A stretch of DNA of 64,000 nucleotides from positions 176,236-240,235 of the forward strand of contig CP066685.1 in assembly GCA_016432345.1 (NCBI GenBank), read 5' to 3'. Numbering within the stretch: position 1 is the first letter of the stretch; each line of letters opens with the position of its first letter. The notes below the pieces were generated by a model. That model was not told the origin of the DNA. It was given only the letters and a program-made list of their open reading frames with translations, and ran no database searches. The DNA comes from Candidatus Levyibacteriota bacterium. GTDB taxonomy: Bacteria; Patescibacteriota; Microgenomatia; Levybacterales; UBA12049. Shown one piece after another: positions 1 to 63,766 of this stretch. Position numbers and translations under genes: made by a program.

Positions 1-633
1 AAGCACAGCATTTCTGCTTCTCCCGCAACAATTCGCAACGAAATGGTAAAACTTACCGAGCTTGGATATCTTAAAAAACCTCATACATCAGCAGGTCGCA
101 TGCCCACATCACAAGGTATGAAGTTTTACGTTAAACAACTCATGAAGGAAAAAGACCTTTCGGTGGCGGAAGAGGTGGCGGTAAAAGAAAAATTGTGGGA
201 TTACCGTGGGAAAGAAGACAAGTTTTTTAGAGAGCTTACCAAATCCCTTGCTAAACAAACCAAATCTCTTGCCGTTGCCACAACAGAGGAAGGGGATTTT
301 TACTGCGCTGGATATGCCAATATCTTAGATATGCCAGAGTTTTATGATATTGATGTTACTAAAAGTTTGCTTTTGGCAATTGATGAATGTGATTACTTTC
401 ATACTTTATTTGCCAAGTTTATAGACGATCAAGACGTGCATGTTTTAGTTGGGGACGAGCTTGGCCCACAGTTGCATGGTCAATACGGATTTGTATTTAC
501 TCATTTTGAAACGCCAAAACACAGAGCAGGGGAAGTTGGGGTACTTGGTCCATCACGGCTTAATTACACAAGGATTGTGCCAACGGTTAGATATTTTGGA
601 GATTTAGTTGAAGAAATTGCAACAGGATGGTAG
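1..633 (+). CDS. hrcA: Heat-inducible transcription repressor HrcA (5' end cut by window edge)
   Basis: The frame is open from nt 1 (KHSISASPATIRNEMVKLTELGYL...), which matches the HrcA SSATIRNEM region. It sits directly upstream of grpE-dnaK-dnaJ. Confidence 0.9.
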   Translation, partial: KHSISASPATIRNEMVKLTELGYLKKPHTSAGRMPTSQGMKFYVKQLMKEKDLSVAEEVAVKEKLWDYRGKEDKFFRELTKSLAKQTKSLAVATTEEGDFYCAGYANILDMPEFYDIDVTKSLLLAIDECDYFHTLFAKFIDDQDVHVLVGDELGPQLHGQYGFVFTHFETPKHRAGEVGVLGPSRLNYTRIVPTVRYFGDLVEEIATGW

Positions 634-672
634 AATTTAGAGTCTAGATAATAGCGTCTAGCGTATAGTTAA
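631..672 (+). repeat. Six phased heptads TAGAATT TAGAGTC TAGATAA TAGCGTC TAGCGTA TAGTTAA, starting at the hrcA stop codon
   Basis: Read directly from the sequence. TAG occurs at 631, 638, 645, 652, 659 and 666, an exact 7-nt period. Confidence 0.9.
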
Positions 673-676
673 AACA

Positions 677-1186
677 ATGACGAAAAATGACAAAAATAAT
701 CAAAAAGAAGTAGAAAAAGTAGATTCTGATGTAAAACAGAAAGCAGAGAAAGAAGAAAAAGAAGATAGTGAAACAGAAAAGTTAAAGCAGAAAGTCGAAG
801 GTCTTGAAAATCAGATAAAAAGAGTATTGGCAGATTATCAGAATCTGGAAAAAAGAGTCAGGGAAGATAGGGTAAGTTGGATCAGAACCGCGAATAAAGA
901 TTTACTCTTGCGATTTTTACCGGTTTTGGATACACTCATATTAGCCAGTAAACATTCAGAAGACAAAAGCTTGGAAGTTACGACTCAGCAATTTTTACAA
1001 GCACTCAAAGACGAAGGAGTAGAAAAAATAGAAACAGAAGGAAAAGCATTTGACCCAAATACAATGGAAGCAATTGGAACTCAAGAGGGAAAAGAAGGGG
1101 AAGTAATCGAAGAAACACGAATGGGATATATGATAAGAGATAGAGTTTTAAGAGTTGCACAGGTGATTGTTGGAGAAGGAAAATAA
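677..1186 (+). CDS. grpE: Nucleotide exchange factor GrpE
   Basis: It has a K/E-rich N-terminus followed by GrpE core motifs (LADYQNLEKR, LLPVLD, FDPNTMEA). It lies between hrcA and dnaK. Confidence 0.93.
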   Translation: MTKNDKNNQKEVEKVDSDVKQKAEKEEKEDSETEKLKQKVEGLENQIKRVLADYQNLEKRVREDRVSWIRTANKDLLLRFLPVLDTLILASKHSEDKSLEVTTQQFLQALKDEGVEKIETEGKAFDPNTMEAIGTQEGKEGEVIEETRMGYMIRDRVLRVAQVIVGEGK

Positions 1187-1400: not shown

Positions 1401-3305
1401 ATGGGAAAAATAATTGGTATTGATTTGGGAACAACAAATAGTTGCGTTGCTGTAATGGAGGGTGGATCACCAAAAGTTATTCACTCTGCAGAAGGCAGAA
1501 ACGTTATTCCATCGGTGGTTGATCCAATCAGTCACGTTGTAGGCGATGTGGCCAAACGACAGTTGGTTTTAAAACCAAAACGGACAATATTTTCTGTCAA
1601 AAGACTGATGGGGCGAAAATTCAACGATGAGTCAGTGCAACGAGACATAAAATGGCTTCCCTATACTGTAAAATCCGGCCGCGACGGCATGACTGTGGTT
1701 GAAGTTGAAGGAAAAACCCTAACGCCTCAAGAAGTTTCGGCCATGATCTTACAAAAAATTAAAGCAGACGCAGAATCTTACTTGGGTGGTAAAGTTATCC
1801 AAGCGGTTATTACAGTGCCGGCGTATTTTGATGACAGTCAGCGTCAGGCCACCAAACAAGCAGGAGAAATTGCCGGACTTGAAGTTCTTAGAATTATCAA
1901 CGAACCAACAGCAGCAGCTCTTGCTTATGGCTTGGATAAAAAGAATGCCCATACTATTGCAGTGTATGATTTGGGCGGTGGTACCTTTGATATTTCTATT
2001 TTGGAACTTGGTGAAGGAGTTTATGAAGTAAAGTCAACCAACGGTGATACGCATTTGGGCGGAGATGATTTTGACCAGAAAATTGTTGATTATTTGGCCG
2101 ATGAATTCAAAAAAGAAAATGGCATTGATCTTAAAAAAGATCCGCAGGCATTGCAGCGACTTCGGGAAGCAGCAGAAAAAGCCAAAATTGAGCTTTCTAG
2201 TAGCACCGAGGCGCAGATTAATCAGCCATTTATCACTCAAGGAAAAGAAGGACCTTTACATTTAACCACCACCTTGACCCGGGCAAAACTCGAACAAATT
2301 GTTGATGAGTTGATTCAAAAAACCATTAAACCAGTTGAATTGGCGTTAAAAGACGCAAAGATTAAAGCATCTGATATTGATGAAGTGGTTTTGGTTGGAG
2401 GAATGACCCGTATGCCTAAGGTTATCGAAGCAGTTACTAAATTTTTTGGTAAAGAGCCGAATAAATCAGTTAATCCAGATGAGGTGGTAGCAGTTGGCGC
2501 AGCAATTCAGGGAGGCGTTTTAGGTGGAGAAGTCAAAGATGTTTTACTTTTAGATGTAACACCATTAACGCTTGGACTTGAAACATTAGGCAGTGTTTCA
2601 ACGCCTTTAATTTCCCGAAACACCACAATTCCAACCAGTAAATCACAAGTTTTTTCAACAGCGGCAGATAATCAAACTCAGGTAGAAATTAATGTGTTGC
2701 AGGGCGAGCGGCCAATGGCTTCGGATAACAAATCATTGGGTAGGTTTATTTTGGATGGTATACCTCCAGCTCCCCGTGGTGTTCCGCAAGTTGAAGTAAC
2801 TTTTGATATTGACGCCAGCGGTATTTTAAGTGTTAAAGCCAAAGACAAGGCAACAGGCAAAGAGCAGAGTATTAAAATTACCGGTTCAACAGGGCTTTCG
2901 AAAGACGAAGTTGAAAAAATGACTAAAGAAGCAGAAATGCACGCTAAAGAAGACGAAGAGAAAAAAGCCAAAGTCGAAACACGAAATCAGGCAGATTCGC
3001 TTATTTTTACGGCCGAAAAATCTCTTAAAGACGCAGGAGATAAAGTGAAGGAAGATCTTAAAAAAGAAGTAGAAGAAAAAATATCAGAACTTAAAAAAAT
3101 TCTAGACACAGGCAGCAAGGAGGAAATCGAGAAAAAAGCCAGCGAATTGTCGGATAGTTTGCAAAAAGTGGGACAGGCGATGTCATCTCAGAAAACGGAA
3201 GACGGAGGACAGAAGACGGAAGCCACCTCCACTGAAAGCTCTAATGAGCCAAAGGAAGAAAAAAAAGATAAAGACGAACCTGTTGAGGGAGAAGTGGTAA
3301 ACTAG
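1401..3305 (+). CDS. dnaK: Molecular chaperone DnaK (Hsp70)
   Basis: Contains [17 protein letters not shown] and [12 protein letters not shown] motifs. A GGAG Shine-Dalgarno lies upstream. Confidence 0.99.
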
Positions 3306-3337
3306 CGTATAGTAAATAGCGTATAGCGTTTAGTTTG
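3303..3337 (+). repeat. Five phased heptads TAGCGTA TAGTAAA TAGCGTA TAGCGTT TAGTTTG, starting at the dnaK stop codon
   Basis: TAG occurs at 3303, 3310, 3317, 3324 and 3331, read directly from the sequence. Confidence 0.9.
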
Positions 3338-3339
3338 GG

Positions 3340-3358
3340 AGCGCAGGGGCGCTTTTTT
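3340..3358 (+). terminator. Short GC hairpin plus T-run after dnaK
   Basis: AGCGC-AGGG-GCGCT forms a 5-bp stem and is followed by TTTTTT. Confidence 0.45.
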
Positions 3359-3360
3359 AG

Positions 3361-3366
3361 TATAAT
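3361..3366 (+). promoter_or_regulatory. TATAAT box 6 nt upstream of the dnaJ ATG (possible leaderless start)
   Basis: TATAAT-ACGATT-ATG. There is no Shine-Dalgarno and no clear -35 element. Confidence 0.35.
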
Positions 3367-3372
3367 ACGATT

Positions 3373-4269
3373 ATGGCAAAAGATTTTTACGAAGCATTGG
3401 GAGTATCCAAAAGCGCGAGCGATGACGAGATAAAGCGTGCGTACCGAAAATTGGCACTGCAGTATCATCCTGATCGAAATAAAGGCAAGGAATCAGAGGA
3501 AAAATTTAAAGAAGTAACCAAAGCCTACGAAGTGTTATCCGACACCCAAAAACGTCAACAGTACGACCAGTTTGGTCATGCGGCATTTGAACAAGGCGCA
3601 GGCGGCCCGGGGCCTTTTGGCGGGACTGGCGGACCGTTTGGCGGAGCACAATCAGGGCAGTATGGACCTTTTAGTTATACATACACAACCGGCGGTGCTA
3701 ATGATTTTGATTTCGGCGGATTTTCTGATCCATTCGAAATTTTTGAACAATTTTTTGGTGGCGCTTCACCTTTTAGCCAACAACGACAGCGGCGTTCGGT
3801 CTACTCACTATCAATTGATTTTATGGAGGCAGTGCATGGAACAGACAAAAAAGTAACCATTGATGGTAAATCGCAAACCATTAAAATTCCAGCAGGTGTT
3901 GATAATGGCACAAGAATTCGTTTTGAAAAGTACGATGTGGTTGTTGAAGTAAGTCCAGATAAACAGTTTCAGCGGGAAGGCACGAATGTTGTTTCCGAAC
4001 AAGAAATTTCGTTTCCTCAAGCAGCTATTGGCGACAATATTGATGTTGAAACAGTTGATGGGACGGTTTCACTTCGTATTCCTTCCGGAACCCAGCCAGA
4101 TGCAGTTATTCGGCTTCGTGGCAAAGGTATTTCGCATGTCCGCGGCGGTGGTAAAGGCGATCATTATGTACGAATCAAAATCGTCGTACCCAAAAACCTC
4201 ACCAGCCGCCAAAAAGACCTCCTCGAAGAATTTGAGGAAGAGGGAAAAAAGAAAAAAGGTTGGTTTTAA
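3373..4269 (+). CDS. dnaJ: J-domain co-chaperone, class II (CbpA/DnaJ-like, no zinc finger)
   Basis: It has a J domain with HPD (YHPDRN), a G/F-rich linker and the C-terminal substrate-binding domains. The protein contains no cysteine at all, so the CxxCxGxG zinc-finger module is absent. Confidence 0.9.
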
Positions 4270-11120: not shown

Positions 11121-11149
11121 TTGGAAATTAGAACATTGCATGTTATAAT
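11121..11149 (+). promoter_or_regulatory. Sigma70-like promoter TTGGAA-17-TATAAT for rpsO
   Basis: The spacing is exactly 17 nt. The -10 box ends 11 nt before the ATG. Confidence 0.55.
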
Positions 11150-11160
11150 AACATTATTAT

Positions 11161-11430
11161 ATGCCACTTTCGGTTACACAAAAGCAAGAAATAATTAAAG
11201 AGTTTCAAACTGTAGATGGGGATACTGGTAGTCCAGAAGTACAAATTGCGCTTCTGACAAAAAGAGTTGATCGTTTAACAGAACATTTAAAAAGTCATAC
11301 GCACGATAATCATAGCCGTCGCGGACTTTTGTCCATGATTGCCAAAAGAAGGAGACTTATTAACTTCTTAGAAAAAGTGGATAAGGCGCGTTCCTCGAGT
11401 ATTGCAAAAAAGATAGGATTGAAAGGATAA
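11161..11430 (+). CDS. rpsO: 30S ribosomal protein S15
   Basis: Typical S15 sequence (GDTGSPEVQIALLT.R...LT.HLK.H.HD.HSRRGL). Confidence 0.97.
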   Translation: MPLSVTQKQEIIKEFQTVDGDTGSPEVQIALLTKRVDRLTEHLKSHTHDNHSRRGLLSMIAKRRRLINFLEKVDKARSSSIAKKIGLKG

Positions 11431-34235: not shown

Positions 34236-34706
34236 ATGCCTACTTTATCACAACTTTCTAAAAGAGGGAGAAAAAGAAAAATTAAGAAAACTCGTTCAAC
34301 AGCATTGCGACGCTTATACAATGCAAAAGAGCGTTTATATACGAATGATCTTTCGCCTCAAAAACGAGGGGTTGTAACATTGGTTAAAACTATGACGCCA
34401 AAAAAGCCAAACTCAGCCCTTAGAAAAGTGGCCAGGGTTAAGCTTTCCAACAGAATAGAAGTAACAGCATATATTCAAGGAGTTGGTCATGCACTTTCTG
34501 AACACGGCATTGTGCTTGTTCGCGGAGGACGGGTTAAAGATTTACCAGGAGTAAAATACCATATTGTTCGTGGAAAGTTTGATTTATTGGGAGTTGATGG
34601 CCGTAAGTCTTCACGAAGTAAGTATGGTACGAAGAAAGGTTTAGGCGGTGGACCGGCAGCTGCGCCGAAAGCGCAAGCATCGGCACCCGCGGCAACCAGC
34701 GTTTAG
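34236..34706 (+). CDS. rpsL: 30S ribosomal protein S12 (with an internal ~13-aa insertion and an Ala/Pro-rich C-terminal tail)
   Basis: It begins MPTLSQL and contains [15 protein letters not shown] and [14 protein letters not shown]. The track's start at 34131 runs inside rpoC and is rejected. Confidence 0.95.
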
Positions 34707-34730
34707 TTAATAGCGTCAGCGTATAGTTAA
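34704..34730 (+). repeat. Heptad block TAGTTAA TAGCGTC (-)AGCGTA TAGTTAA starting at the rpsL stop codon
   Basis: It uses the same words as the 652-672 array, with one T missing. Read directly from the sequence. Confidence 0.85.
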
Positions 34731-34740
34731 AAATAAAAAC

Positions 34741-34775
34741 TAAGCGCTAATATCTAGACGCTAAACGCTAAAATT
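34741..34775 (+). repeat. Five phased heptads TAAGCGC TAATATC TAGACGC TAAACGC TAAAATT ending at the rpsG ATG
   Basis: TAA or TAG occurs at 34741, 34748, 34755, 34762 and 34769, and the ATG at 34776 continues the same 7-nt phase. The block is an inverted version of the TAGCGT words. Confidence 0.85.
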
Positions 34776-35249
34776 ATGAGACATAAAAAAGTTGTAAAAA
34801 GAGAAACAAATACAGATCCAGTTTATAATAGTAAGTTAGTAGCGAAATTTATTAATAATATTATGATCGCTGGTAAAAAGACCGCTGCCCAGAAGACTTT
34901 TTATAATGCGTTGGTTATTCTTGAAAGCAAGGGTCAAGTGCCTTTGGAGGCTTTTGAAAAAGCAATTCAAACTGTGGGGCCAAGAGTAGAAGTGAAAGCC
35001 AGACGAGTAGGCGGAGCAAATTATCAAGTGCCGGCAGAAGTTAGGGGAGAGCGAAAAACTTCTTTAGCAATTCGTTGGATAATAGATGCTGCAAAAGCAA
35101 GGCCAAGCGCGCAGTTTCATACATTCGCCGAAAAGCTTGCAGCAGAGTTGTTAGACGTGCTGCAAAATCAAGGAGCAGCAATCAAAAAGCGAGATACAGT
35201 CCTTCGCATGGCCGAAGCCAACAAAGCCTTCGCCCATTTCCGTTGGTAA
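34776..35249 (+). CDS. rpsG: 30S ribosomal protein S7
   Basis: Typical S7 sequence (DPVYNS.LV.KFIN..M..GKK..A). Confidence 0.97.
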   Translation: MRHKKVVKRETNTDPVYNSKLVAKFINNIMIAGKKTAAQKTFYNALVILESKGQVPLEAFEKAIQTVGPRVEVKARRVGGANYQVPAEVRGERKTSLAIRWIIDAAKARPSAQFHTFAEKLAAELLDVLQNQGAAIKKRDTVLRMAEANKAFAHFRW

Positions 35250-35383: not shown

Positions 35384-35412
35384 TTGACTTCTTGCTTAAT
35401 GTAGTATAAAAT
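35384..35412 (+). promoter_or_regulatory. Putative fic promoter TTGACT-17-TAAAAT, 8 nt before the ATG
   Basis: Hexamers and spacing were read directly. The arrangement implies a leaderless or near-leaderless mRNA. Confidence 0.4.
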
Positions 35413-35420
35413 AGCCTTGT

Positions 35421-36362
35421 ATGGATGATAGATTACTTAAGTTACAGGCTAAAAAACAACGTCTAGATAGCTATAAACCACTCCGAAACGAACTTATTAA
35501 AAACCTGGAGGAATGGTTTCGGATAGAATTAACCTATACCTCCAATGCCATAGAAGGTAATACTTTAACCCGGCAAGAAACTGCTATGGTGGTAGAAGAA
35601 GGCATTACTGTTAAAGGTAAAAGTTTGACAGAGCATCAGGAAGCAATCAGTCATGCAGAAGCTTTTGATTATATTCAAACCCTCGTTAATAAAAAAAGGC
35701 AAGAATTAACAACTAAAGATATTTTAGATATTCATAGCATTATCCTAAATAAAATCGATGACACAAATAAAGGTAAATACCGAACAGTAGCCGTGCGGCT
35801 TAGAGGCTCGGAAACAATCTTACCAAATCCTCTAAAAGTATCGGAATTAATGGACGAGTTTATAACCTGGTTAAAAAGTGATATTTCTGATCACCCTGTT
35901 AAAATTGCTATCGATGCCCATTATAAATTAGTAAGTATTCATCCTTTTGTTGACGGTAATGGGAGAACCGCACGATTGTTAATGAACTTACTTTTAATGC
36001 AATCAGGTTATCCTTCTGCCATAGTTCGCAAAGAGGATCGTAGCGAGTACATCAATTCTTTAGAAAAAGGTCAAACCAAAAATGATACAGATGACTATGA
36101 CACTTTAATGCTTGAAGCAGTAGATCACTCTTTGGATATTTATCTTGAGGCAGTCGAACCAGAAAAAGTAAGTGCAGAAGAACCAACACTAGATCAGCGT
36201 TTTTACACAACAGATGAGGTGGCAAAGCTTCTGCAGGTTGATCCAGAAAGTGTTAGAAGATACGTAAGACGTGGAGATTTAAAAGCTGTTAAGCTTGGAG
36301 GAAAATTTATTAGAATTGATAAAACTGATTTAGAAAAATTTATTGAATCTCTTAAGAGTTAA
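35421..36362 (+). CDS. Fic-domain protein (class II, internal inhibitory motif) fused to a C-terminal excisionase/MerR-type HTH
   Basis: The Fic motif HPFVDGNGRTAR lies at aa 174-185. The inhibitory-helix motif SNAIEG ([ST]xxxE[GN]) lies at aa 41-46. The C-terminal FYTTDEVAKLLQVDPESVRRYVRRGDLKAVKLGGKFIRIDKTDLEKFI is an excisionase-family HTH. Confidence 0.88.
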   Translation: MDDRLLKLQAKKQRLDSYKPLRNELIKNLEEWFRIELTYTSNAIEGNTLTRQETAMVVEEGITVKGKSLTEHQEAISHAEAFDYIQTLVNKKRQELTTKDILDIHSIILNKIDDTNKGKYRTVAVRLRGSETILPNPLKVSELMDEFITWLKSDISDHPVKIAIDAHYKLVSIHPFVDGNGRTARLLMNLLLMQSGYPSAIVRKEDRSEYINSLEKGQTKNDTDDYDTLMLEAVDHSLDIYLEAVEPEKVSAEEPTLDQRFYTTDEVAKLLQVDPESVRRYVRRGDLKAVKLGGKFIRIDKTDLEKFIESLKS

Positions 36363-39878: not shown

Positions 39879-39922
39879 TGAAAAGGAATTTTAAAATTCT
39901 TATTTCATGATAAAATGTTAGT

Positions 39923-41557
39923 GTGATTGTGCTTTTGTTTTTTGCTTTTCTGGCCGGACTTACCACCATTTTGGCTCCGTGTATTTGGCCGCTTCTACCA
40001 ATCATTCTTTCTTCTTCAACAACAGGCGGACACCGGAAACCGCTTGGGATAACGCTTGGCATTATTGTTAGCTTCTCTATTTTTACATTAAGTATTTCCT
40101 ATTTGGTTATGCTGTTTCATTTTGACCCCAATATTTTGAGAATAATTGCCGCCATAACCATTGCATTTTTAGGTTTGACCATGATTGTTCCGGCACTACT
40201 TATTCGTTACGAATCGCTTATTACCAAACTAAGCAGCTTTATCGGTGGAAGGCCAATTGCCAGTCACCATGGTTTTTTCGGCGGGTTTATCACCGGTCTT
40301 TCACTTGGCATTATTTGGTCTCCTTGCGCCGGGCCAATTTTGGCAACCATCGCGGCGCTGGGCGCAACGCAGGCGGTAAATTTTCAGGTTGTGCTTGTGG
40401 CTATTGCATATGGTTTTGGTGTTGGTATCCCGCTTTTTTTATTTTCATTTCTGGGAACGTGGCTTTTTCAAAAAAGCAGATTTATATCCGCATACACAAG
40501 TCATGTACAAAAATTATTTGGTGTTATTACTATTCTTACGGCAATTGCCATTTATACAAATTACGACAAAGTTATTCAATTAAAACTTCTTAGCGCGTTT
40601 CCAACATACACAACATTTACAAATAAGCTTGAAGGTAACGACAAAGTAAAAGAGCAGCTTGGTATTTTAAAAGGCGAAAAAACCAAAACCCCAGGTATTA
40701 AAAAGATACTTAAGTCTTCATCTTTATCCAATTATGGCCGCGCCCCGGAGTTTGTTGGAATTTCCAACTGGATTGGTTCGAAACCTTTAACAATGCAGGA
40801 ATTAAAAGGGAAAGTAGTTTTAATAGATTTTTGGACATACACGTGTATTAATTGCATCCGGACACTGCCGTATGTAACCAGCTGGTACGAGAAATATAAA
40901 GATAAAGGATTTATGGTTATTGGCGTACATACGCCGGAATTTGAGTTTGAGAAGAAAACAGAGAATGTAGAAAATGCAATAAAAATGTATAACATTACTT
41001 ATCCAGTTGCTCAAGACAATAATTATGCCATCTGGCAGGCATATAACAATCAATACTGGCCGGCGAAATATCTTATTGATGCCAATGGGAATATTCGTTA
41101 TACCCATTTTGGTGAAGGAAAATACGAAGAAACAGAAAAAGCCATTCAGGCGCTTCTTGAAGAAGCAGGTAGAAAAGTAGATGGGAAAGTAGTAAAAGTA
41201 GAAGATCAAACACCAAAAACAAGACTTACTCCAGAAACATATCTTGGCAAAAAGCGAGGAGACGGATCGGTTATGTTTAAAGGTTCGTGGGATATTTTAG
41301 ACGAACAAGCAGTGGCTTCAAAAGGTTCGATTCTCGAGTTACGTTTTTACGCTAATAAAGTGTTTTTGGTGGTAACACCTGCGACACAAAAAGATCGGGC
41401 AAAAATTTTTCTTGATGATAAGTTAATTGGAGAAATGGTGTTCGATGTGGCAAAACTTTATGAACTGGTTGATCTAAAGGGGAATATAGGAGATCACATC
41501 TTGCGGATAGAATTTGAGCAAAACGGCACCGCTGTCTACGCCTTTACGTTTGGCTGA
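39923..41557 (+). CDS. DipZ-like protein: CcdA/DsbD-type membrane domain fused to a thioredoxin-like domain (CINC) and a C-terminal beta domain
   Basis: The TM cysteines are LAPCIWP and SPCAGPIL. The thioredoxin-fold segment is VLIDFWTYTCINCIRTLP. The overall architecture matches mycobacterial DipZ. It has a GTG start. Confidence 0.75.
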   Translation: MIVLLFFAFLAGLTTILAPCIWPLLPIILSSSTTGGHRKPLGITLGIIVSFSIFTLSISYLVMLFHFDPNILRIIAAITIAFLGLTMIVPALLIRYESLITKLSSFIGGRPIASHHGFFGGFITGLSLGIIWSPCAGPILATIAALGATQAVNFQVVLVAIAYGFGVGIPLFLFSFLGTWLFQKSRFISAYTSHVQKLFGVITILTAIAIYTNYDKVIQLKLLSAFPTYTTFTNKLEGNDKVKEQLGILKGEKTKTPGIKKILKSSSLSNYGRAPEFVGISNWIGSKPLTMQELKGKVVLIDFWTYTCINCIRTLPYVTSWYEKYKDKGFMVIGVHTPEFEFEKKTENVENAIKMYNITYPVAQDNNYAIWQAYNNQYWPAKYLIDANGNIRYTHFGEGKYEETEKAIQALLEEAGRKVDGKVVKVEDQTPKTRLTPETYLGKKRGDGSVMFKGSWDILDEQAVASKGSILELRFYANKVFLVVTPATQKDRAKIFLDDKLIGEMVFDVAKLYELVDLKGNIGDHILRIEFEQNGTAVYAFTFG

Positions 41558-41559
41558 CC

Positions 41560-41568
41560 TGGTATAAT
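41560..41568 (+). promoter_or_regulatory. Extended -10 box TGGTATAAT 6 nt before the GTG of the GH18-like gene
   Basis: Read directly. It overlaps the 3' end region of the dipZ-like gene. Confidence 0.4.
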
Positions 41569-41574
41569 CACAGG

Positions 41575-42639
41575 GTGAAAAAGTTAGGTATTTTGATTGT
41601 TTGCTTCTTTGTTGTTGGTATATTTTTTTTTCTCCAAAAGAAAGAAAACAAGACACAGCAGGTTTTGCCGGCATCAGATAGTATTGTTCCTACGAAGATC
41701 CCGAAACAAGTTCGGGATGACAAGGGTCAGGAAAAAAAGTTTCTGTTTGTGCCGTACTGGGGACAAACACAAGATAAAATACCCAATGAGTTTGGCGATA
41801 TGCTTATTTATTTTGGTATTACTCCAAGCAAAGATGGAATTGATACTCAAGAGCCTGGATTTTTGGGTTTGGGTAGGTTTGTGGGGATTTCGGAAGGAAG
41901 AAAAACATTATTAACGATTCGCATGATGGATCAAGACACAAATTTTGCGATTATTAAAGATAAAAAGCAGCAAGAAAAAATTATGACACAAGCAATAGTT
42001 ATAGCAAAACAAAAAGGTTTTTCGGGCATTGTTTTGGATTTAGAGATTAGCAGTCTGCCTTTTGCAACGGTAACTGACCAGATGAATAAGTTTGTTTCGG
42101 ACTTTTCGAAGTCTGCAAAAAAAAATAACTTAACATTTTCCATGATGTTTTTTGGCGACACGTTTTTCAAGCTTCGGCCATACGATGTTACCGTATTACG
42201 GCAGTATCTCGATACTGTTTTTGTGATGGCGTACGATTTTAGTAAGGTAAAAGGCGATCCAGGGCCTAATTTTCCCTTTCCCGAGTTTACTCTTATGGTG
42301 CAAGATTTTTTAAATATTGTGCCAAAAGAAAAATTGGTGATTGTTTTTGGCATGTTTGGGTACGATTGGCAAGTTGATACTGATGGAAAGTCAGTTGGCC
42401 AAGCAAGGGCGGTAACAACAACAGTTGCCAAAAAACAATTTGTCAATCAATGTTTGTTCAAAAAATGTGATGTAAAGCGAGATAAAGTATCGGCAGAGAC
42501 AACGATTACATATATCGATAATCAAGGAAATAATCATATTGTGTGGTTTGAAGATGAAGAATCAGTGGCTAAAAAGAGTGAATTTTTAAAAGAAAAAGGA
42601 ATAAAAAATGTGGGGTATTGGGCATACTCATACTTTTAA
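41575..42639 (+). CDS. Glycoside hydrolase family 18-like protein (membrane anchored)
   Basis: It has an N-terminal TM helix. The segment GFSGIVLDLE corresponds to the GH18 DxxDxDxE region and is partly degenerate. The C-terminal GIKNVGYWAYSY is typical of GH18 barrels. Confidence 0.6.
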   Translation: MKKLGILIVCFFVVGIFFFLQKKENKTQQVLPASDSIVPTKIPKQVRDDKGQEKKFLFVPYWGQTQDKIPNEFGDMLIYFGITPSKDGIDTQEPGFLGLGRFVGISEGRKTLLTIRMMDQDTNFAIIKDKKQQEKIMTQAIVIAKQKGFSGIVLDLEISSLPFATVTDQMNKFVSDFSKSAKKNNLTFSMMFFGDTFFKLRPYDVTVLRQYLDTVFVMAYDFSKVKGDPGPNFPFPEFTLMVQDFLNIVPKEKLVIVFGMFGYDWQVDTDGKSVGQARAVTTTVAKKQFVNQCLFKKCDVKRDKVSAETTITYIDNQGNNHIVWFEDEESVAKKSEFLKEKGIKNVGYWAYSYF

Positions 42640-45604: not shown

Positions 45605-45633
45605 TTGTCCCAAATATGCGCATGCGATATACT
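45605..45633 (+). promoter_or_regulatory. Putative promoter TTGTCC-17-TATACT, 7 nt before the acyltransferase GTG
   Basis: Read directly. It implies a leaderless transcript. Confidence 0.4.
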
Positions 45634-45640
45634 AATGTAG

Positions 45641-46720
45641 GTGGATAAAAAGACATATATTTTTGCCGCAGACGTTACTCGCGATATTGCCATCATTGGC
45701 GTTGTTATTATTCATACTATAAATGCCGTTTACACCCGACCTGATTTTTTTGGAGGAATAACCTGGTGGATAACTACATTTTTAGATTCAGCCTCTCGAA
45801 TTTCCATCCCGCTTTTTATTATGCTCAGTGGGTATTTACTGCTAAAAAAAGACGAGACAATGGAACAATCGTTAAAACGAATAGCTTCTAGAATTATAGT
45901 TCCTTTTATCTTTTGGGTGCTTTTTTATTTTTGGTATGGCGGCGGTCTTCCTTCATTTAATTTTATAAGAGTAAGCATTTTAAAAAACGTATTTCAGAGT
46001 AACGTATTTCATCTTTATTATTTGGTTATTCTCATGGGTTTATATGTAATCGCTCCACTGATCCGAGCTTATCTGCGTAGTGTTTCGTTTGCGTCACAAG
46101 AGTTTTTAATGAAGATTTTTCTTGTTGGCGGAGTTCTGCAAGTAGGATTGGAATTTATCTTTCAAACCTGTGCCGCCGAGAATTTTTTTACACGCTGGAT
46201 GCCTTACACAGGGTTTTTTATAGCAGGTTATGTATTGGGCACAAAACAACATCTACTTAAAACATCCAAACTTTTTATATGGTATGCGGCAGCATTTACA
46301 ACAACTGTGGGTCTTAACTATTTACATTATTTCCTTGTTAAATACAAGTATAATTTTCTTGATGCGCCGGGATGTCTTTCATATTACAGCGATCATTATC
46401 TTAGTATAAATGTGGTTATAATGTCTTTGTGCGCTTTTATTTTTTTGCTTCATGCCTCATACGGGTTTTTACAAAACAATAGAATTGCGGCAAAAATTAT
46501 TGCTTCTTTAGCACGAACATCTTTTGGAATATATTTAGCCCACCCGTTTATTAACCGATTTTTAGAGATGCAATTTCATCTAGCTGTTGATATTAGCAAG
46601 TTGCCAATTTTTATTATTATTACACTAAAATTTTTTCTGGTATTTGTGCTTTCTTACTTTCTTACGTTTTTTTGTTTAAAAATTCCAATTGTGCAGCTAG
46701 TTTTTGGTGGAAAAAGGTAA
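45641..46720 (+). CDS. Acyltransferase family 3 (OatA-like) integral membrane protein
   Basis: It has about 10 TM helices, the N-terminal pattern R.IAIIGVV.IH, and a typical Acyl_transf_3 layout. It has a GTG start. Confidence 0.75.
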   Translation: MDKKTYIFAADVTRDIAIIGVVIIHTINAVYTRPDFFGGITWWITTFLDSASRISIPLFIMLSGYLLLKKDETMEQSLKRIASRIIVPFIFWVLFYFWYGGGLPSFNFIRVSILKNVFQSNVFHLYYLVILMGLYVIAPLIRAYLRSVSFASQEFLMKIFLVGGVLQVGLEFIFQTCAAENFFTRWMPYTGFFIAGYVLGTKQHLLKTSKLFIWYAAAFTTTVGLNYLHYFLVKYKYNFLDAPGCLSYYSDHYLSINVVIMSLCAFIFLLHASYGFLQNNRIAAKIIASLARTSFGIYLAHPFINRFLEMQFHLAVDISKLPIFIIITLKFFLVFVLSYFLTFFCLKIPIVQLVFGGKR

Positions 46721-52222: not shown

Positions 52223-52740
52223 GTCAGACTCAAAACGAATTACAGCAAAAACTAAATATAAAAAATGTGATGGCAGTGCCAAAGATTTCTAAAATTGTTG
52301 TCAACATGGGCGTAAAAGACGTAGTACAGGATAAAAAAAATATCGAAAGAGCAGCGGTAATTCTATCGCAAATTACTGGGCAAAAGCCCAAAATCACATC
52401 GGCCAAAAAATCTATTGCAACTTTTAAGCTAAGAGAAGGAGATCAAATAGGGGTTATGGTAACATTGCGAGGAAAACGAATGCATGATTTTTTTACAAAA
52501 CTTACTAGTATTGTTTTACCCCGACTTAGAGATTTTCGAGGTGTTTCAAAAAAGCAATTTGATGGGCATGGCAATTATACATTGGGGTTTTCCGAGCACA
52601 CGGTATTTCCAGAAATTGATCCTGGAAAGGTAGAAAAGGTTTTTGGTTTTGAAGTTGTTATTGTGACAACAGCCAGAGACAATAAAGAAGGACTTGCATT
52701 GCTTGAAATGCTTGGCATGCCCTTTATGAAAAGCGTCTAG
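52219..52740 (+). CDS. rplE: 50S ribosomal protein L5
   Basis: Contains typical L5 blocks (ITGQKP, FKLREG, RDFRG). Confidence 0.97.
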
Positions 52741-52765
52741 TTTTTTCAACTGAACGCTAAAAATT

Positions 52766-52951
52766 ATGGCAAAGAAATCTAATATTGTTAAATTTAAAAA
52801 AAAGCAAAAGTTTGCTGTTCGTCAGAAAAACAGATGTAACATTTGTGGAAGAAATAGGGCTTACATGCGACGGTTTGGTTTATGTCGTTTGTGTTTTCGG
52901 GAATTAGTCATGAAAGGAGAATTGCCAGGGGTAACAAAAGCAAGCTGGTAA
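52766..52951 (+). CDS. rpsN: 30S ribosomal protein S14 type Z (zinc-binding)
   Basis: It is 61 aa and carries CNICGR...CRLC. Confidence 0.96.
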
Positions 52952-58310: not shown

Positions 58311-58389
58311 AGTTAGACAAGCGTCTAGTTCAAGGACTGCCACATGGCAAACTAACCGCTAGTCGGTTAGTAACTAAACGCTTATATTT

Positions 58390-58608
58390 ATGGCTCATCA
58401 GGGATCATACGAAGTAGAAGGTGTTGTTAAAGAATCATTGCCTAATACCTTATTTCGTGTTGAAACCTCGGATGGGCAGATTATTTTGTGTCATTTATCC
58501 GGTAAGATGAGAATGCATTTTATTAAAATTTTGCCAGGAGATAAGGTTAAAGTGGAAATGACGCCGTACGACAAGTCGAAGGGAAGAATTACCTATAGAG
58601 GAAAATAA
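58390..58608 (+). CDS. infA: Translation initiation factor IF-1
   Basis: The S1-like fold sequence G.V.E.LPN..FRV....G......L.GKMR...I.I..GD.V.VE..PYD...GRI.YR supports the call. Confidence 0.97.
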
Positions 58609-59583: not shown

Positions 59584-60186
59584 ATGGCACGATATACAGG
59601 ACCAAAACATAAATTAGCTAGAAGACATGGAGTAAATATTCTTGATAAGGAATCTAAATCTCTTACTAGAAGATTAACTGTTCTTCCTGGTATCCATGGA
59701 AAAAAGAGAAAAAGAGCCCTGTCCGAATTTGGTCAGCAGTTAAAAGAAAAACAAAAGGCAAAAACCATGTATGGTATTTTAGAAAAGCAGTTTAAAAATC
59801 TTGTTGATAAATTGCAAAAGAAAAAGGGTGAAACAGGAGAACTTTTAATATCTCTTTTGGAAACAAGACTTGATAATATCGTTTATCGCTTGGGTTTTAC
59901 AAAATCAAGATTTCAAGCAAGACAGTTTGTTGCGCATGGCCATATTTTGGTAAATGGTAAGAAAATGACAATTCCGTCCTATCAGGTTAAAGAAAAAGAT
60001 ATTATAGAATTATCTCCCAAATTGCAGAAAAACCCTAATGTTTTAGAGCTCTTAAAAGAGGAAAGACCGATACTTTCGTATCTAGCAAGAGAAGCAATTT
60101 CTGGAAAGCTGTTGCGTATGCCGGGAAAGGCAGATGTGCAGGTTCCTTTTGATACACAGCTGATTATTGAATATTATTCAAGATAG
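59584..60186 (+). CDS. rpsD: 30S ribosomal protein S4
   Basis: Begins MARYTGPK.KL.RR.G and has an S4 RNA-binding domain. Confidence 0.96.
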   Translation: MARYTGPKHKLARRHGVNILDKESKSLTRRLTVLPGIHGKKRKRALSEFGQQLKEKQKAKTMYGILEKQFKNLVDKLQKKKGETGELLISLLETRLDNIVYRLGFTKSRFQARQFVAHGHILVNGKKMTIPSYQVKEKDIIELSPKLQKNPNVLELLKEERPILSYLAREAISGKLLRMPGKADVQVPFDTQLIIEYYSR

Positions 60187-60213
60187 TGTTATAATACTTT
60201 TTTGAACTTATTT

Positions 60214-61137
60214 ATGGATCCGGTATTTAAAGTAAAAGAAGAAAAACATACAGATGAGTACGGCGAGTTTGTTATCGAACCGCTAGAGCCAGGATATGGT
60301 CATACGGTTGGAAATGCGTTGCGCCGAGTGCTTTTAACATCTATTCCAGGAGCTGCAATAACCTCTGTTAAAATTTCTGGTGTGAAACATAGATTTTCTA
60401 CACTTTCTGGACTTAAAGAAAACATTGTTGATTTGCTTCTTAATCTTAAAGGTGTAAGTTTCCATTTTTCCGACGCAAAAACCAGCGCCACGATTAGAAT
60501 CTCTGAAAAAGGCCCCAAAACCATTACGGCAAGAGATATTGTTGTCAGTGATGGCGTTGAAATTGTTAATAAAGATCATTATTTGGGTTCGTTAGCAGAT
60601 AAAAAAGCAAAACTAGATATGGAAATGACTGTTGAAAAAGGACAAGGATACATGGTTGTAGAAGATCGAAAAGTATCTGAAGTAGGAGTTATTACCACAG
60701 ATGCCATATTTACTCCTGTAAGAAGAGTTAGCTATAATGTATCTGCAACACGTGTTGGCAGACAAACAAATCTTGATAAACTGACCATATCCATTTGGAC
60801 AAACGGCACAATTACTCCCCGCGAGGCTCTTCGCCAAGCCGCTAAAGTTTTAGGGTCGTTTTTTATGCAAGTATACGAACCAAAATCCGCATCGCTTCCA
60901 TCAGATGGCATAGCAATAAGTCCAAGCATTTCTGAAGATTTGCTTAAGCTTACCATTGATGAACTCGATTTACCAACCCGTATTTACAATAGTTTACGAA
61001 ATGGTAGCATAGAAACACTTGGGCAACTTTTGGGAACATCAAAAAGAGACCTTATGACTATGAGAAATATGGGAAACAAATCTATTAGTATTATCGAGGA
61101 TAAATTGCGAGAAAAAGGAATATCATTGGGAGTGTAA
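60214..61137 (+). CDS. rpoA: DNA-directed RNA polymerase subunit alpha
   Basis: Contains GYGHTVGNALRRVLL and a C-terminal helix-hairpin-helix domain (LDLPTRIYNSL). The ATG at 60214 is preferred over the TTG at 60202. Confidence 0.96.
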   Translation: MDPVFKVKEEKHTDEYGEFVIEPLEPGYGHTVGNALRRVLLTSIPGAAITSVKISGVKHRFSTLSGLKENIVDLLLNLKGVSFHFSDAKTSATIRISEKGPKTITARDIVVSDGVEIVNKDHYLGSLADKKAKLDMEMTVEKGQGYMVVEDRKVSEVGVITTDAIFTPVRRVSYNVSATRVGRQTNLDKLTISIWTNGTITPREALRQAAKVLGSFFMQVYEPKSASLPSDGIAISPSISEDLLKLTIDELDLPTRIYNSLRNGSIETLGQLLGTSKRDLMTMRNMGNKSISIIEDKLREKGISLGV

Positions 61138-61140
61138 GAC

Positions 61141-61200
61141 ACGAATAGACACGAATGTTTTTTGAGCGGAAATTGAGTATTCGTGTTTATTCGTTTTTTT
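61141..61200 (+). terminator. 16-bp hairpin plus T6 run between rpoA and rplQ, ending at the rplQ ATG
   Basis: ACGAATAGACACGAAT (61141-61156) pairs with ATTCGTGTTTATTCGT (61179-61194) with one G-U pair. The loop is 22 nt and TTTTTT occupies 61195-61200. Confidence 0.6.
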
Positions 61201-62650: not shown

Positions 62651-62678
62651 TTGCATTTTATCATATTGTTGTTACAAT
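62651..62678 (+). promoter_or_regulatory. Sigma70-like promoter TTGCAT-16-TACAAT for recA
   Basis: Read directly. The -10 ends 11 nt before the ATG. Confidence 0.5.
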
Positions 62679-62689
62679 GAGAACCAATT

Positions 62690-63766
62690 ATGGGAAGACT
62701 ATCAGTACATAAAACATCTCCAAATGGACACACCGAAACTTCTCAAAAACTGGAAGCAGTTAGATTGGCCATGGAGCAAATCGAAAAACAATATGGTCGG
62801 GGGTCTATTATGCGTTTTGGCGAGGCAGCGCAAAAGTTTGATATTTCGGTTATTTCCACCGGTTGTCTTCCTTTAGACTTAGCGCTTGGTGTTGGCGGTG
62901 TGCCAAGGGGAAGAATTATAGAAATTTTTGGTCCAGAGGCATCGGGGAAAACAACTATTTGTTTATCTATTATTGCTCAAGCTCAAAAACATGGGGGTGT
63001 GGCGGCGTTTATTGATGCCGAACATGCCCTTGATCCGTTGTGGGCGCAGCGTTTGGGAGTAAAGCTGGACGAATTGCTTATTTCCCAACCTGATACCGGC
63101 GAGCAGGCTCTTGAGATTGCCGAAAGTCTTATCCGAAGCGGCGGCGTTGATGTGTTGGTTATAGATTCTGTAGCGGCATTAGTGCCCAGGGCCGAAATAG
63201 AGGGAGAAATGGGAGATTCGATGATGGGTCTTCAAGCAAGACTAATGTCTCAAGCGCTTCGAAAATTAACAGGAGTTATTTCTAAATCCAAAACTGTGTG
63301 TATTTTTACCAATCAATTGCGTCAAAAGATTGGGGTCATGTTTGGTAACCCCGAAACCACCACTGGCGGTTTGGCATTAAAGTTTTATTCATCAATTCGT
63401 ATGGATGTTAGAAAAATCGAAACCATCAAAGACGGCGATAAAGTGGTTGGGTCGCGGCATCGGGTTAAGATTGTCAAAAATAAAGTATCCTCACCATTTC
63501 GGATTGCCGAGTTTGATGTTGGATCAGGCGGCATATCTCGAGAAGGCGGCATTTTGGATGTGGGGTTAGAAATGGGAGTGTTGCAAAAATCTGGCGCATT
63601 TTACCGCTATAACGATCAAATGATTGGTCAGGGAAAAATTGCCGTAGCGGAGTATTTAAAAGAAAATCAGGATGTGGCCAAAAAAATTGTGGCGGAAATT
63701 ATGGATAAAAGTAAAGGCGTAACACCAGTGGCAGTGGGCATGGAAGAAGCCTCTGAATCAGAATAA
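62690..63766 (+). CDS. recA: Recombinase RecA
   Basis: Contains [12 protein letters not shown], the FIDAEHALD pattern and L1/L2 loop regions. Confidence 0.99.

Follow-up and report, generated by a model that had tools for sequence, protein, structure and literature searches.

The 64,000-nt window analysed here (positions 176,236 to 240,235 of contig CP066685.1, assembly GCA_016432345.1, from a Candidatus Levyibacteriota bacterium) contains the chaperone genes hrcA, grpE, dnaK, and dnaJ, and the spacer between hrcA and grpE is filled by six tandem heptanucleotides that all begin with TAG. It is well supported that this array (site 1) is a direct-repeat copy of a small dispersed heptanucleotide-repeat family, which has the core TAGCGTN / AGCGTNTAG and is located at cistron junctions. 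It is likewise well supported that this family locally represents a widespread class, the short intergenic heptamer arrays of 4–6 units. Across the relatives of this genome, the 7-nt period and the spacer length of ~42 nt are what is conserved, and the TAG is not.

Heptad arrays and hairpins at gene junctions of the window

The hrcA gene (open reading frame [ORF] 43..633, identified by synteny and Pfam in the longer contig L001) stops at positions 631–633, and this stop codon is the first TAG of the array. Re-reading of positions 631–679 confirmed the description given in a first-pass annotation of this DNA, that is, six in-phase TAG-N4 heptads running from the hrcA stop codon, with the ATG of grpE (ORF 677..1186) following 4 nt beyond. 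No Shine-Dalgarno-like (SD-like) word was found ahead of this ATG. The array is direct, without a partner arm or palindrome, and a scan of the window returned no terminator-like site between 631 and 677. An assembly artefact can be excluded, since six contigs, each from a different sequencing run, had the identical array; these contigs are 100% identical overall (clonal), and a comparison of copy number among them is hence uninformative.

The pattern TAG-N4-TAG-N4-TAG matched the window 10 times, with 0.31 ± 0.58 matches expected, and none of 100 dinucleotide shuffles reached 10. The matches were confined to three places, at 631–668, at 3303–3333, and, on the minus strand, at 34740–34770. The annotation had proposed counting TAR-N4 runs genome-wide, and the count was run on the window. 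The strict TAG-N4 form was clearly enriched, and the looser TAR-N4 form was so only weakly (16 matches vs. 8.8 expected), with 14 of the 16 lying in the same three places.

The annotation had also stated that the same words recur after dnaK and after rpsL. This is true, and the common core of the three places is TAGCGTN TAGCGTN TAG. The 9-mer AGCGTNTAG was found 12 times in the window (0.88 expected), every time at a gene junction, and five junctions were involved in all (Table 1). The family takes the form of direct arrays at hrcA/grpE and dnaK/dnaJ and of hairpins at rpsL/rpsG, at rplE/rpsN, and in the infA leader, the hairpins ending 6–7 nt ahead of the next ATG. The view that this is a repeated element and not a local accident is borne out by the five window loci, by the array kept in the closest relative (L007), and by at least 11 related 71-nt copies in another relative.

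All four genes upstream of family copies stop with TAG, which accounts for 16 of the 68 stops across the window. The element also takes in the two final codons (AGC GTN) of rpsL and rplE. The ribosomal protein S12 carries an Ala/Pro-rich C-terminal extension of ~22 residues (34630–34706), the last codons of which are located inside the site 3 element.

Table 1. Heptad repeats and adjoining features in the window. Folding free energies are in kcal/mol.
Feature	Coordinates (strand)	Composition	Folding	Context
Site 1, direct array of six heptads	631..672 (+)	TAGAATT TAGAGTC TAGATAA TAGCGTC TAGCGTA TAGTTAA		hrcA/grpE junction
A-rich linker and grpE ATG	673..679 (+)	AACA, ATG		ATG at 677, without Shine-Dalgarno
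Site 2, direct array of five heptads	3303..3337 (+)	TAGCGTA TAGTAAA TAGCGTA TAGCGTT TAGTTTG		begins at dnaK stop codon
Short GC hairpin and T run, terminator-like	3340..3358 (+)	AGCGC-AGGG-GCGCT		34 nt past dnaK stop; read from the sequence, not listed by a simple terminator scan; followed by TATAAT box (3361–3366), 6 nt, and dnaJ ATG at 3373
Site 3, rpsL/rpsG hairpin from the same words	34698..34769 (+)	5′ arm AGCGTT TAGTTAA TAGCGTC AGCGTA TAGTTAA; 3′ arm CTAAGCG CTAATAT CTAGACG CTAAACG CT	−25; z = −3.46	inverted repeats found; 5′ arm includes rpsL stop at 34704; 6 nt from end of 3′ arm to rpsG ATG at 34776
Site 4, rplE/rpsN mini hairpin	52732..52758 (+)	AGCGTCTAGTT-TTTTC-AACTGAACGCT	−9.3; z = −1.4 (weak)	rplE stop TAG at 52738–52740; 7 nt from hairpin end to rpsN-like ATG at 52766
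Site 5, infA leader hairpin	58319..58383 (+)	base AAGCGTCTAGTT / AACTAAACGCTT	−24.2; z = −2.8	directly 3′ of TGTTATAAT box; 6 nt from hairpin end to ATG at 58390

Conservation of period and length in orthologous spacers

For comparison, 80 hrcA-grpE-dnaK-dnaJ loci of Levybacteria-like relatives were taken from metagenomes, with GrpE proteins 40–70% identical. In most lineages, hrcA-grpE spacers longer than ~30 nt were filled by 4–6 tandem heptads, spanning the spacer from just past the stop codon to 0–10 nt ahead of the ATG. The unit itself varied by lineage and included AAATTCA, AAATTTA, ATATTAA, TAGAAGA, AAAATCA, AATTTTC, CAATTTA, AGATTTA, and others. Thus, of the annotation's suggestion that the phase of the TAG would be preserved in related genomes, the 7-nt phase stood and the TAG did not, as lineages use unrelated units.

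When Tandem Repeats Finder was applied to the window and the 80 loci, 137 arrays of at least 3.5 copies had a period of 7, and no other period exceeded 15. Lag-7 autocorrelation of at least 0.8 in a 28-nt window was reached in 20 of the 41 unique hrcA-grpE spacers of 28 nt or more, and in none of them for lags 4–6 and 8–11. The arrays were mostly intergenic, with 82 of 120 unique arrays located outside long ORFs, in DNA that makes up 22% of the sequence.

The hrcA-grpE spacer lengths were bimodal, with 19 of 60 spacers at ≤27 nt and 30 of 60 at 35–48 nt, and the short ones often had adjacent or overlapping stop and start codons (e.g., TAATG). The grpE-dnaK spacers measured either ≤13 nt or 63–90 nt, and the long ones mostly comprised an array and its reverse-complement array, which together form a hairpin. 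The dnaK-dnaJ layout of the window was kept in relatives, with the stop codon, an array of ~31 nt, a GC hairpin with a T run, a −10 box, and dnaJ in this order. In 15 of 19 lineages, 30–35 nt separated the dnaK stop from the stem regardless of the unit, and the spacing applied even in a lineage without an evident array.

Spacer sequences were then set against four-fold sites of the same genomes. Between the window and L007, four-fold site identity was 0.36 and spacer identity 0.77 (lengths 43 and 48 nt); between L034 and L048, the values were 0.46 and 0.93 (45 and 45 nt); among L050, L053, and L056, they were ~0.41 and 0.71–0.82 (all 45 nt); and for the dnaK-dnaJ spacers of L038 and L070, they were 0.46 and 0.85 (74 and 74 nt). 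In these pairs, the spacers are far more alike than the saturated four-fold sites, which indicates selection, and the identical lengths seen in diverged relatives speak against a phase-variable simple sequence repeat (SSR). The 3′ part of site 1 was kept in L007, and at site 2 all five seventh positions differed between the two genomes, whereas 1 of 30 core positions did. These comparisons indicate purifying selection on spacer length, and also on a 6-nt core inside individual sub-lineages, while the unit is exchanged from time to time.

Two further observations were made in these loci. In L054, a GC-rich insertion of ~57 nt (approximately 171–227) breaks the hrcA-grpE heptad array in comparison with the 91% identical relative L035. 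A period-7 repeat, GAAGACG, is located in the 3′ coding region of dnaK (window 3191–3222, L069 6347–6392, L081 6453–6483) and is kept in several relatives.

Heptad palindromes in a relative and arrays in other phyla

The family behaves as a dispersed repeat spreading to junctions of essential genes. In Levyibacteriota MGR_bin367 (contig JACDET010000006.1; loci L091 and L165 of one 46-kb contig), at least 11 near-identical heptad-built palindromes of 71 nt with the same loop, AGCGTCTAGGGTATAGCGTCTAGCGTCTAGT-loop-ACTAGACCCTAACCGCTAGAAGCTAAACGCT, were located at ribosomal-protein cistron junctions (e.g., L165 5559–5629). The genes upstream of this element end in AGC GTC TAG (Ser-Val-stop), which the element supplies, and the base of its 3′ stem lies 8–12 nt ahead of an SD-less ATG. 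The copies fold with z from −4.1 to −4.9, and a hand count of their 3′ arms gave a purine after CTA in 55 of 58 units. The arms contain conserved non-complementary positions across the 11 copies, and a search for covariation gave one compensatory pair, the copies being too alike. The equivalent junctions of the window are short, adjacent, or overlapping, and several of their downstream genes have SD-like words. Because the elements part ribosomal-protein genes in MGR_bin367, they must be compatible with the expression of essential downstream genes.

A cross-phylum scan of one genome per species with the pattern TAGCGTNTAGCGTNTAG gave at least 120 loci. The window genome is not among the matches listed, and the results in the rest of this section refer to those matches. 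Nearly all were true arrays of 3–8 units, and they came from Omnitrophota, Atribacterota, Levyibacteriota, other Microgenomates-group phyla, Saccharibacteria, Planctomycetota, Nitrospirota, Bacteroidota, Gammaproteobacteria, and others. Period 7 was represented by 296 arrays and any other period by at most 39, and 152 arrays consisted of other units. Since other units are abundant in the same loci, TAGCGTN is not special, and the genomes are generally rich in heptads.

A reverse-complement array follows in 44 of the 131 TAGCGTN arrays and precedes none of them, and the free positions in the resulting hairpin arms were 58% Watson-Crick paired vs. 30% expected, a figure that the fold register may inflate. 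In the TAGAATT-type hairpins of Microgenomates, the arms come in the opposite order, so that each unit family has its own order. Single TAG arrays had a co-directional upstream gene in 34 cases vs. 12, and nine arrays begin exactly at the upstream stop codon.

The candidate role of TAG as a special core across phyla was rejected, because, in units upstream of the TAGCGTN seeds, TAG and CGT disappear at about the same rate; in downstream units, TAG was lost modestly slower than CGT. The heptad-rich genomes concentrate in uncultivated groups (Omnitrophota, Atribacterota, phyla of the candidate phyla radiation [CPR], Planctomycetota, and Nitrospirota). In the ~850 kb around the matches (L087–L206), period-7 arrays were at least 7-fold more numerous than those of any other period.

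Relation to known heptamer repeats

Site 1 fits the known intergenic heptamer repeats feature by feature and is a new member, not a new kind. Among long simple repeats, heptanucleotides have been reported as those most over-represented in the intergenic DNA of prokaryotes (Mrazek 2007, as cited in PMC4679880 and PMC4692102). TAACTGA heptamers are found in marine Beggiatoaceae, Cyanobacteria, and Bacteroidetes, in 2–6 copies that run toward an RBS-less start codon (one without a ribosome-binding site) and end ~1 nt short of it (MacGregor 2015, PMC4679880). Some of these copies overlap the end of the upstream ORF, others are located inside ribosomal-protein operons, and S1, Csp, and CsrA have been proposed in this connection (PMC4679880).

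The family described here likewise has a 7-nt unit that holds stop triplets, with 2–6 tandem intergenic copies in forward orientation a few nucleotides from an RBS-less start, and it too includes copies overlapping the upstream ORF end, many loci per genome, and ribosomal-protein operons. As in heptameric SSRs, the unit recurs, here at five window loci, and period 7 prevails (137 arrays vs. ≤15 and, among the matches listed, 296 vs. ≤39). However, the unit (TAGCGTN / TAG-N4) and the phylum are other ones, which makes it the same kind of repeat but a different family. Furthermore, no start codon adjoins site 2, convergent hairpins are built by the family as well, and Levybacteria-like genomes use many units. 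Compared with the TAACTGA report, the present analysis adds measurements of orthologous conservation and length constraint.

The G-rich heptamers GGGAATC / GGGGAYT of Xanthomonas and Nostoc mostly comprise four units and include convergent pairs, and a Calothrix heptamer case is cited in the same study (Rehm 2015, PMC4692102). With these and with the over-represented intergenic heptamers mentioned above, the family shares the period-7 excess, the intergenic location, ~4 units, some convergent pairs, and conserved and free unit positions. The same likeness extends to the STRR heptamers, reportedly described in heterocystous cyanobacteria by Mazel in 1990. By contrast, those heptamers are G-rich, the Xanthomonas and Nostoc ones being able to form G-quadruplexes, and their length varies between close species, whereas the arrays here are AT-rich or of the TAGCGTN type and are conserved in length.

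Another repeat of this period is the 7-bp SSR that we take to be located upstream of the H. influenzae hmw genes. Its units are contiguous as they are here and lie in the 5′ untranslated region (UTR), but it is long and variable in copy number, whereas copy number here is fixed (for the 7-bp SSR, see PMC12721329). A literature search for heptamer repeats in CPR bacteria returned nothing relevant.

A possible intercistronic spacer and its alternatives

As a tentative reading, which we prefer to the alternatives discussed below, positions 631–672 may act at the mRNA level as a fixed-length, essentially unstructured intercistronic spacer of ~6 × 7 nt. Beginning at the upstream stop codon and ending a few bases ahead of an SD-less start, the array would replace the very short or overlapping stop/start junction found in relatives. 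Ribosomes would terminate at the first TAG, and the single-stranded array would serve as a platform for grpE initiation or re-initiation. This platform might be occupied by ribosomes directly, or by a protein that covers ~7 nt, for example one with an oligonucleotide/oligosaccharide-binding (OB) fold of the S1 or cold-shock type. In the hairpin copies (sites 3–5), the stop and the start would be brought together at the stem base. The 7-nt period probably originated from slipped-strand duplication, as a mutational signature often seeded at a stop codon, and selection would then have acted on the length of the spacer and also, inside sub-lineages, on its 6-nt core. The composition of the sense strand is biased (A>T in 33 arrays vs. 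11), and array spacers are nearly free of structure, with a mean minimum free energy of −2.8 kcal/mol. The TAACTGA heptamers, placed just ahead of RBS-less starts (PMC4679880), offer a precedent for such a placement.

Several points weigh against this reading, every functional step of which is one that we infer. Dinucleotide shuffles had no more structure than the arrays (mean z = −0.66), and composition alone therefore accounts for the missing structure. An SD-like word at −4 to −20 was found in just 14 of 59 other window genes; SD-less starts are thus the rule in the window, and grpE is no exception in lacking one. The site 2 array is located in a 3′ UTR ahead of a terminator-like hairpin, with no adjoining start codon, and consequently one initiation-centred mechanism cannot cover every copy. 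L080 has a spacer of the same length without an array, which suits the notion that length matters and the repeats are filler. In other genome pairs, the unit turned over as fast as four-fold sites, and across 50 arrays the pattern of conserved core and variable positions within arrays was not significant (combined z = 0.64). Finally, no candidate for a binding protein was found among the window proteins scanned.

Three candidate properties of the elements were rejected. A selected absence of structure was ruled out, as the arrays match the shuffles. The absence of an SD as a mark of element-preceded genes was not significant, most window genes being SD-less. An all-frame stop as a general property was rejected, since stop triplets in the sense-strand unit of 69 unbiased arrays were not enriched over composition (54 vs. 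50.2 expected). The annotation had offered an all-frame ribosome backstop as one explanation; that arrays begin at stop codons and that all four upstream genes here stop with TAG agrees with it, and the stop-triplet count does not.

Mutational filler is another explanation, one that we think unlikely. In that case, 7-nt-biased slipped-strand duplication would fill a length-selected spacer, the repeat sequence would have no function, and the TAG would be copied from the seeding stop. Unit sequences that differ freely between lineages and within genomes as period and length persist, arrays that often hold a stop or start codon in phase, same-length spacers without repeats, and stop triplets not above composition would all be expected of filler. 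The TAGCGTN-bearing genomes are also rich in other heptamers (152 arrays of other units; 296 period-7 arrays vs. ≤39, among the matches listed), and polymerase slippage has been proposed for the heptamer excess (Mrazek 2007, as cited in PMC4679880 and PMC4692102). Filler would not, however, explain spacer identities of 0.77–0.93 where four-fold sites are saturated at 0.36–0.46, the contrast between core and seventh position against L007, or the identical 9-mer AGCGTNTAG at five unrelated junctions. In addition, units within an array differ at the seventh position, which makes recent homogenizing slippage unlikely.

An improbable alternative, in our judgement, is a binding array for a sequence-specific oligomeric protein, with one heptad per subunit on RNA or duplex DNA, that would co-regulate chaperone and ribosomal-protein genes. 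Such a protein would be in keeping with the conserved six-base core and free seventh base, the same word at five junctions, the direct and convergent but never divergent arrangements (44 vs. 0, among the matches listed), and the conserved non-complementary positions in the arms of the 11 copies of the 71-nt element. Nevertheless, several unrelated heptad units per genome would require many proteins, and the edges of the element are stop and start codons, which a DNA operator does not need. The opposite arm order of the TAGAATT-type hairpins and the pairing of free hairpin-arm positions above chance (58% Watson-Crick vs. 30%) also argue against it, a double-stranded DNA reading leaves the strand bias unexplained, and the window proteins scanned included no candidate of the HutP, TRAP, or ribbon-helix-helix type.

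Specific binding proteins were compared in turn, the annotation having likened the array to the sites of HutP, TRAP, and CtsR. The HutP site of B. subtilis hut mRNA reads UAG-N4-UAG-N4-UAG and occurs in two clusters. UAG triplets exactly 4 nt apart are indeed present at 631–672, where six TAGs are in phase, but here they form one continuous run in which the N4 is not free: against L007, CGT in N4 was as conserved as TAG. The TAG was replaced in distant spacers, and most orthologous spacers have non-TAG units. No terminator or antiterminator adjoins site 1; site 2 precedes a hairpin with a T run, at a different locus. TAGCGTN words also build palindromic hairpins, which speaks against both a HutP-like and a TRAP-like array. 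The search for HutP- or TRAP-like proteins that the annotation had proposed was run on 30 non-ribosomal window proteins and gave no HutP or TRAP domain. A TRAP array comprises 9–11 (G/U)AG triplets with spacers of 2–3 nt, as opposed to six units with 4-nt spacers here. The CtsR pattern (RGTCAAA-NAN-RGTCAAA) had 11 matches at 3 mismatches vs. 14 expected, and none was in the array.

The omega repressor of pSM19035, a ribbon-helix-helix protein, binds contiguous heptads in direct or convergent arrangement. The present arrays are also contiguous and of 7-bp units, with 44 convergent and no divergent cases among the matches listed, but they lack the omega consensus WATCACW, they are located away from promoters, with no promoter overlap at site 1, and no ribbon-helix-helix candidate was detected in the window proteins scanned. 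A search of Rfam at gathering thresholds and at E ≤ 1 returned one tRNA and a chance miRNA match, and nothing at the repeat sites. NusA, IF2, S15, PNPase, and RNase J are present among the window proteins.

REP/BIME, Correia, RUP, and ERIC are small dispersed palindromes, and the family might be a dispersed element of the REP or MITE (miniature inverted-repeat transposable element) type, with site 1 as a solo arm, that acts on mRNA processing or stability. Hairpin copies would then protect flanking cistrons, and the single-stranded hrcA-grpE copy would be a cleavage site uncoupling the unstable hrcA from grpE-dnaK. In B. subtilis, the transcript of the dnaK operon undergoes processing between hrcA and grpE, which counts in favour of this mechanism, as does the presence of RNase J and PNPase genes in the window. 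Like REP/BIME, the family is dispersed, multi-copy, and extragenic within operons just past stops, and REP/BIME have possible roles in mRNA stability or translation. Multi-copy imperfect extragenic palindromes were seen at sites 3–5 and in the 71-nt element, which occupies different ribosomal-protein junctions in MGR_bin367 in no fewer than 11 near-identical copies that share one loop. The genes upstream of these copies, as well as rplE and rpsL in the window, end in AGC GTN TAG taken from the element, and the hairpins fold with significant stability (z from −2.8 to −4.9).

We nonetheless find a REP- or MITE-like mechanism rather improbable. Unlike REP/BIME, the arms are built from heptad repeats, and site 1 is a direct array without a palindrome. 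Sites 1 and 2 are orthologously conserved against L007, not mobile, and the hairpins lack a following U run and are thus not terminators. No transposase, target-site duplication, or pair of filled and empty sites was demonstrated; no RAYT or insertion sequence (IS) transposase was evident in the window proteins scanned, no search aimed at transposases or target-site duplications having been made.

An internal promoter for a leaderless or short-leader grpE transcript (TATAGT at 664–669, or TTGAAG-17-TGgTAGAAT at 608–636) is very improbable: many window genes do have a −10 box 6–11 nt ahead of the start codon, TATAGT lies 7 nt (window) and 11 nt (L007) ahead of the ATG, the scan listed TTGAAG-17-TAGAAT with its preceding TG, and a spacer of 35–48 nt approximates the size of a core promoter, but TATAGT has no usable −35, promoter-like matches in the region numbered 5 vs. 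8.4 in shuffles, and the best score over 25 array-bearing orthologous spacers was 6.5 vs. 5.4 in shuffles, of 12. As a general explanation, the internal promoter was accordingly rejected with scores near those of shuffles, and a single-copy case at TATAGT could still apply in a genome rich in starts of the leaderless type.

Other features of the window and its relatives

Many window genes have a −10-like box 6–11 nt before the start codon and no Shine-Dalgarno, which suggests widespread leaderless or near-leaderless mRNAs; such places are 3361–3375, 11140–11163, 35400–35423, 39905–39925, 41560–41577, 45625–45643, 60185–60204, and 62670–62692. At the rpoA/rplQ junction, a strong hairpin (61134–61200; −23.5 kcal/mol, z = −4.4) is followed by a U run. 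Its arms are 10-nt direct repeats, with two copies of AGACACGAAT paired with TATTCGTGTT TATTCGTTTT, so that it is built from repeats of a different period.

The hrcA promoter TTGACA-17-TATATT overlaps a degenerate CIRCE (L001 4028–4070; L007 2950–3118), which reads TGGCACTC-N9-TACTGCTAA in L001 and TTAGCAGTC-N9-TACTGCTAA in L007. L007 has an added hrcA leader of 130 nt with an AAATTCT/TAGAATT heptad hairpin 10 nt from the ATG, which is absent in the window's genome. Between grpE and dnaK, the window contains a DUF4177 ORF of 69 aa (1190–1399) that is absent at the equivalent position in the relatives examined. In the str operon, rpsG and fusA are separated by an inserted Fic/DOC gene with a helix-turn-helix (35421–36362), which has a TTGACT-17-TATAAA promoter of its own.

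Implications for translation in these bacteria

Heptamer repeats have been known to be over-represented since 2007, and none has an established function. Here, the period and the length are kept across dozens of lineages, the unit turns over, and some genome pairs are conserved beyond silent sites, which argues for function. The locus is an unusually clean test case, since the operon hrcA-grpE-dnaK-dnaJ is essential and conserved and the repeat spans the spacer from stop to start.

A broader possibility, which we rate as rather unlikely, is that cistron junctions are generally punctuated by heptad arrays and heptad hairpins, in a system not described before that a conserved factor with a 7-nt step would read. 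Its elements would begin at the stop codon and stop a set few bases ahead of an SD-less start. The system would span Levybacteria/Microgenomates and several mostly uncultivated phyla (Omnitrophota, Atribacterota, Saccharibacteria, and others). The factor might be the ribosome or S1, a cold-shock-type protein, or an oligomer, and its job would be to hand ribosomes over between cistrons or to set processing points. If true, the punctuation system would be an alternative to Shine-Dalgarno-based coupling, and a reader of the 7-nt step, if it exists, would bear on operon translation in SD-poor, leaderless-prone bacteria such as those of the CPR.

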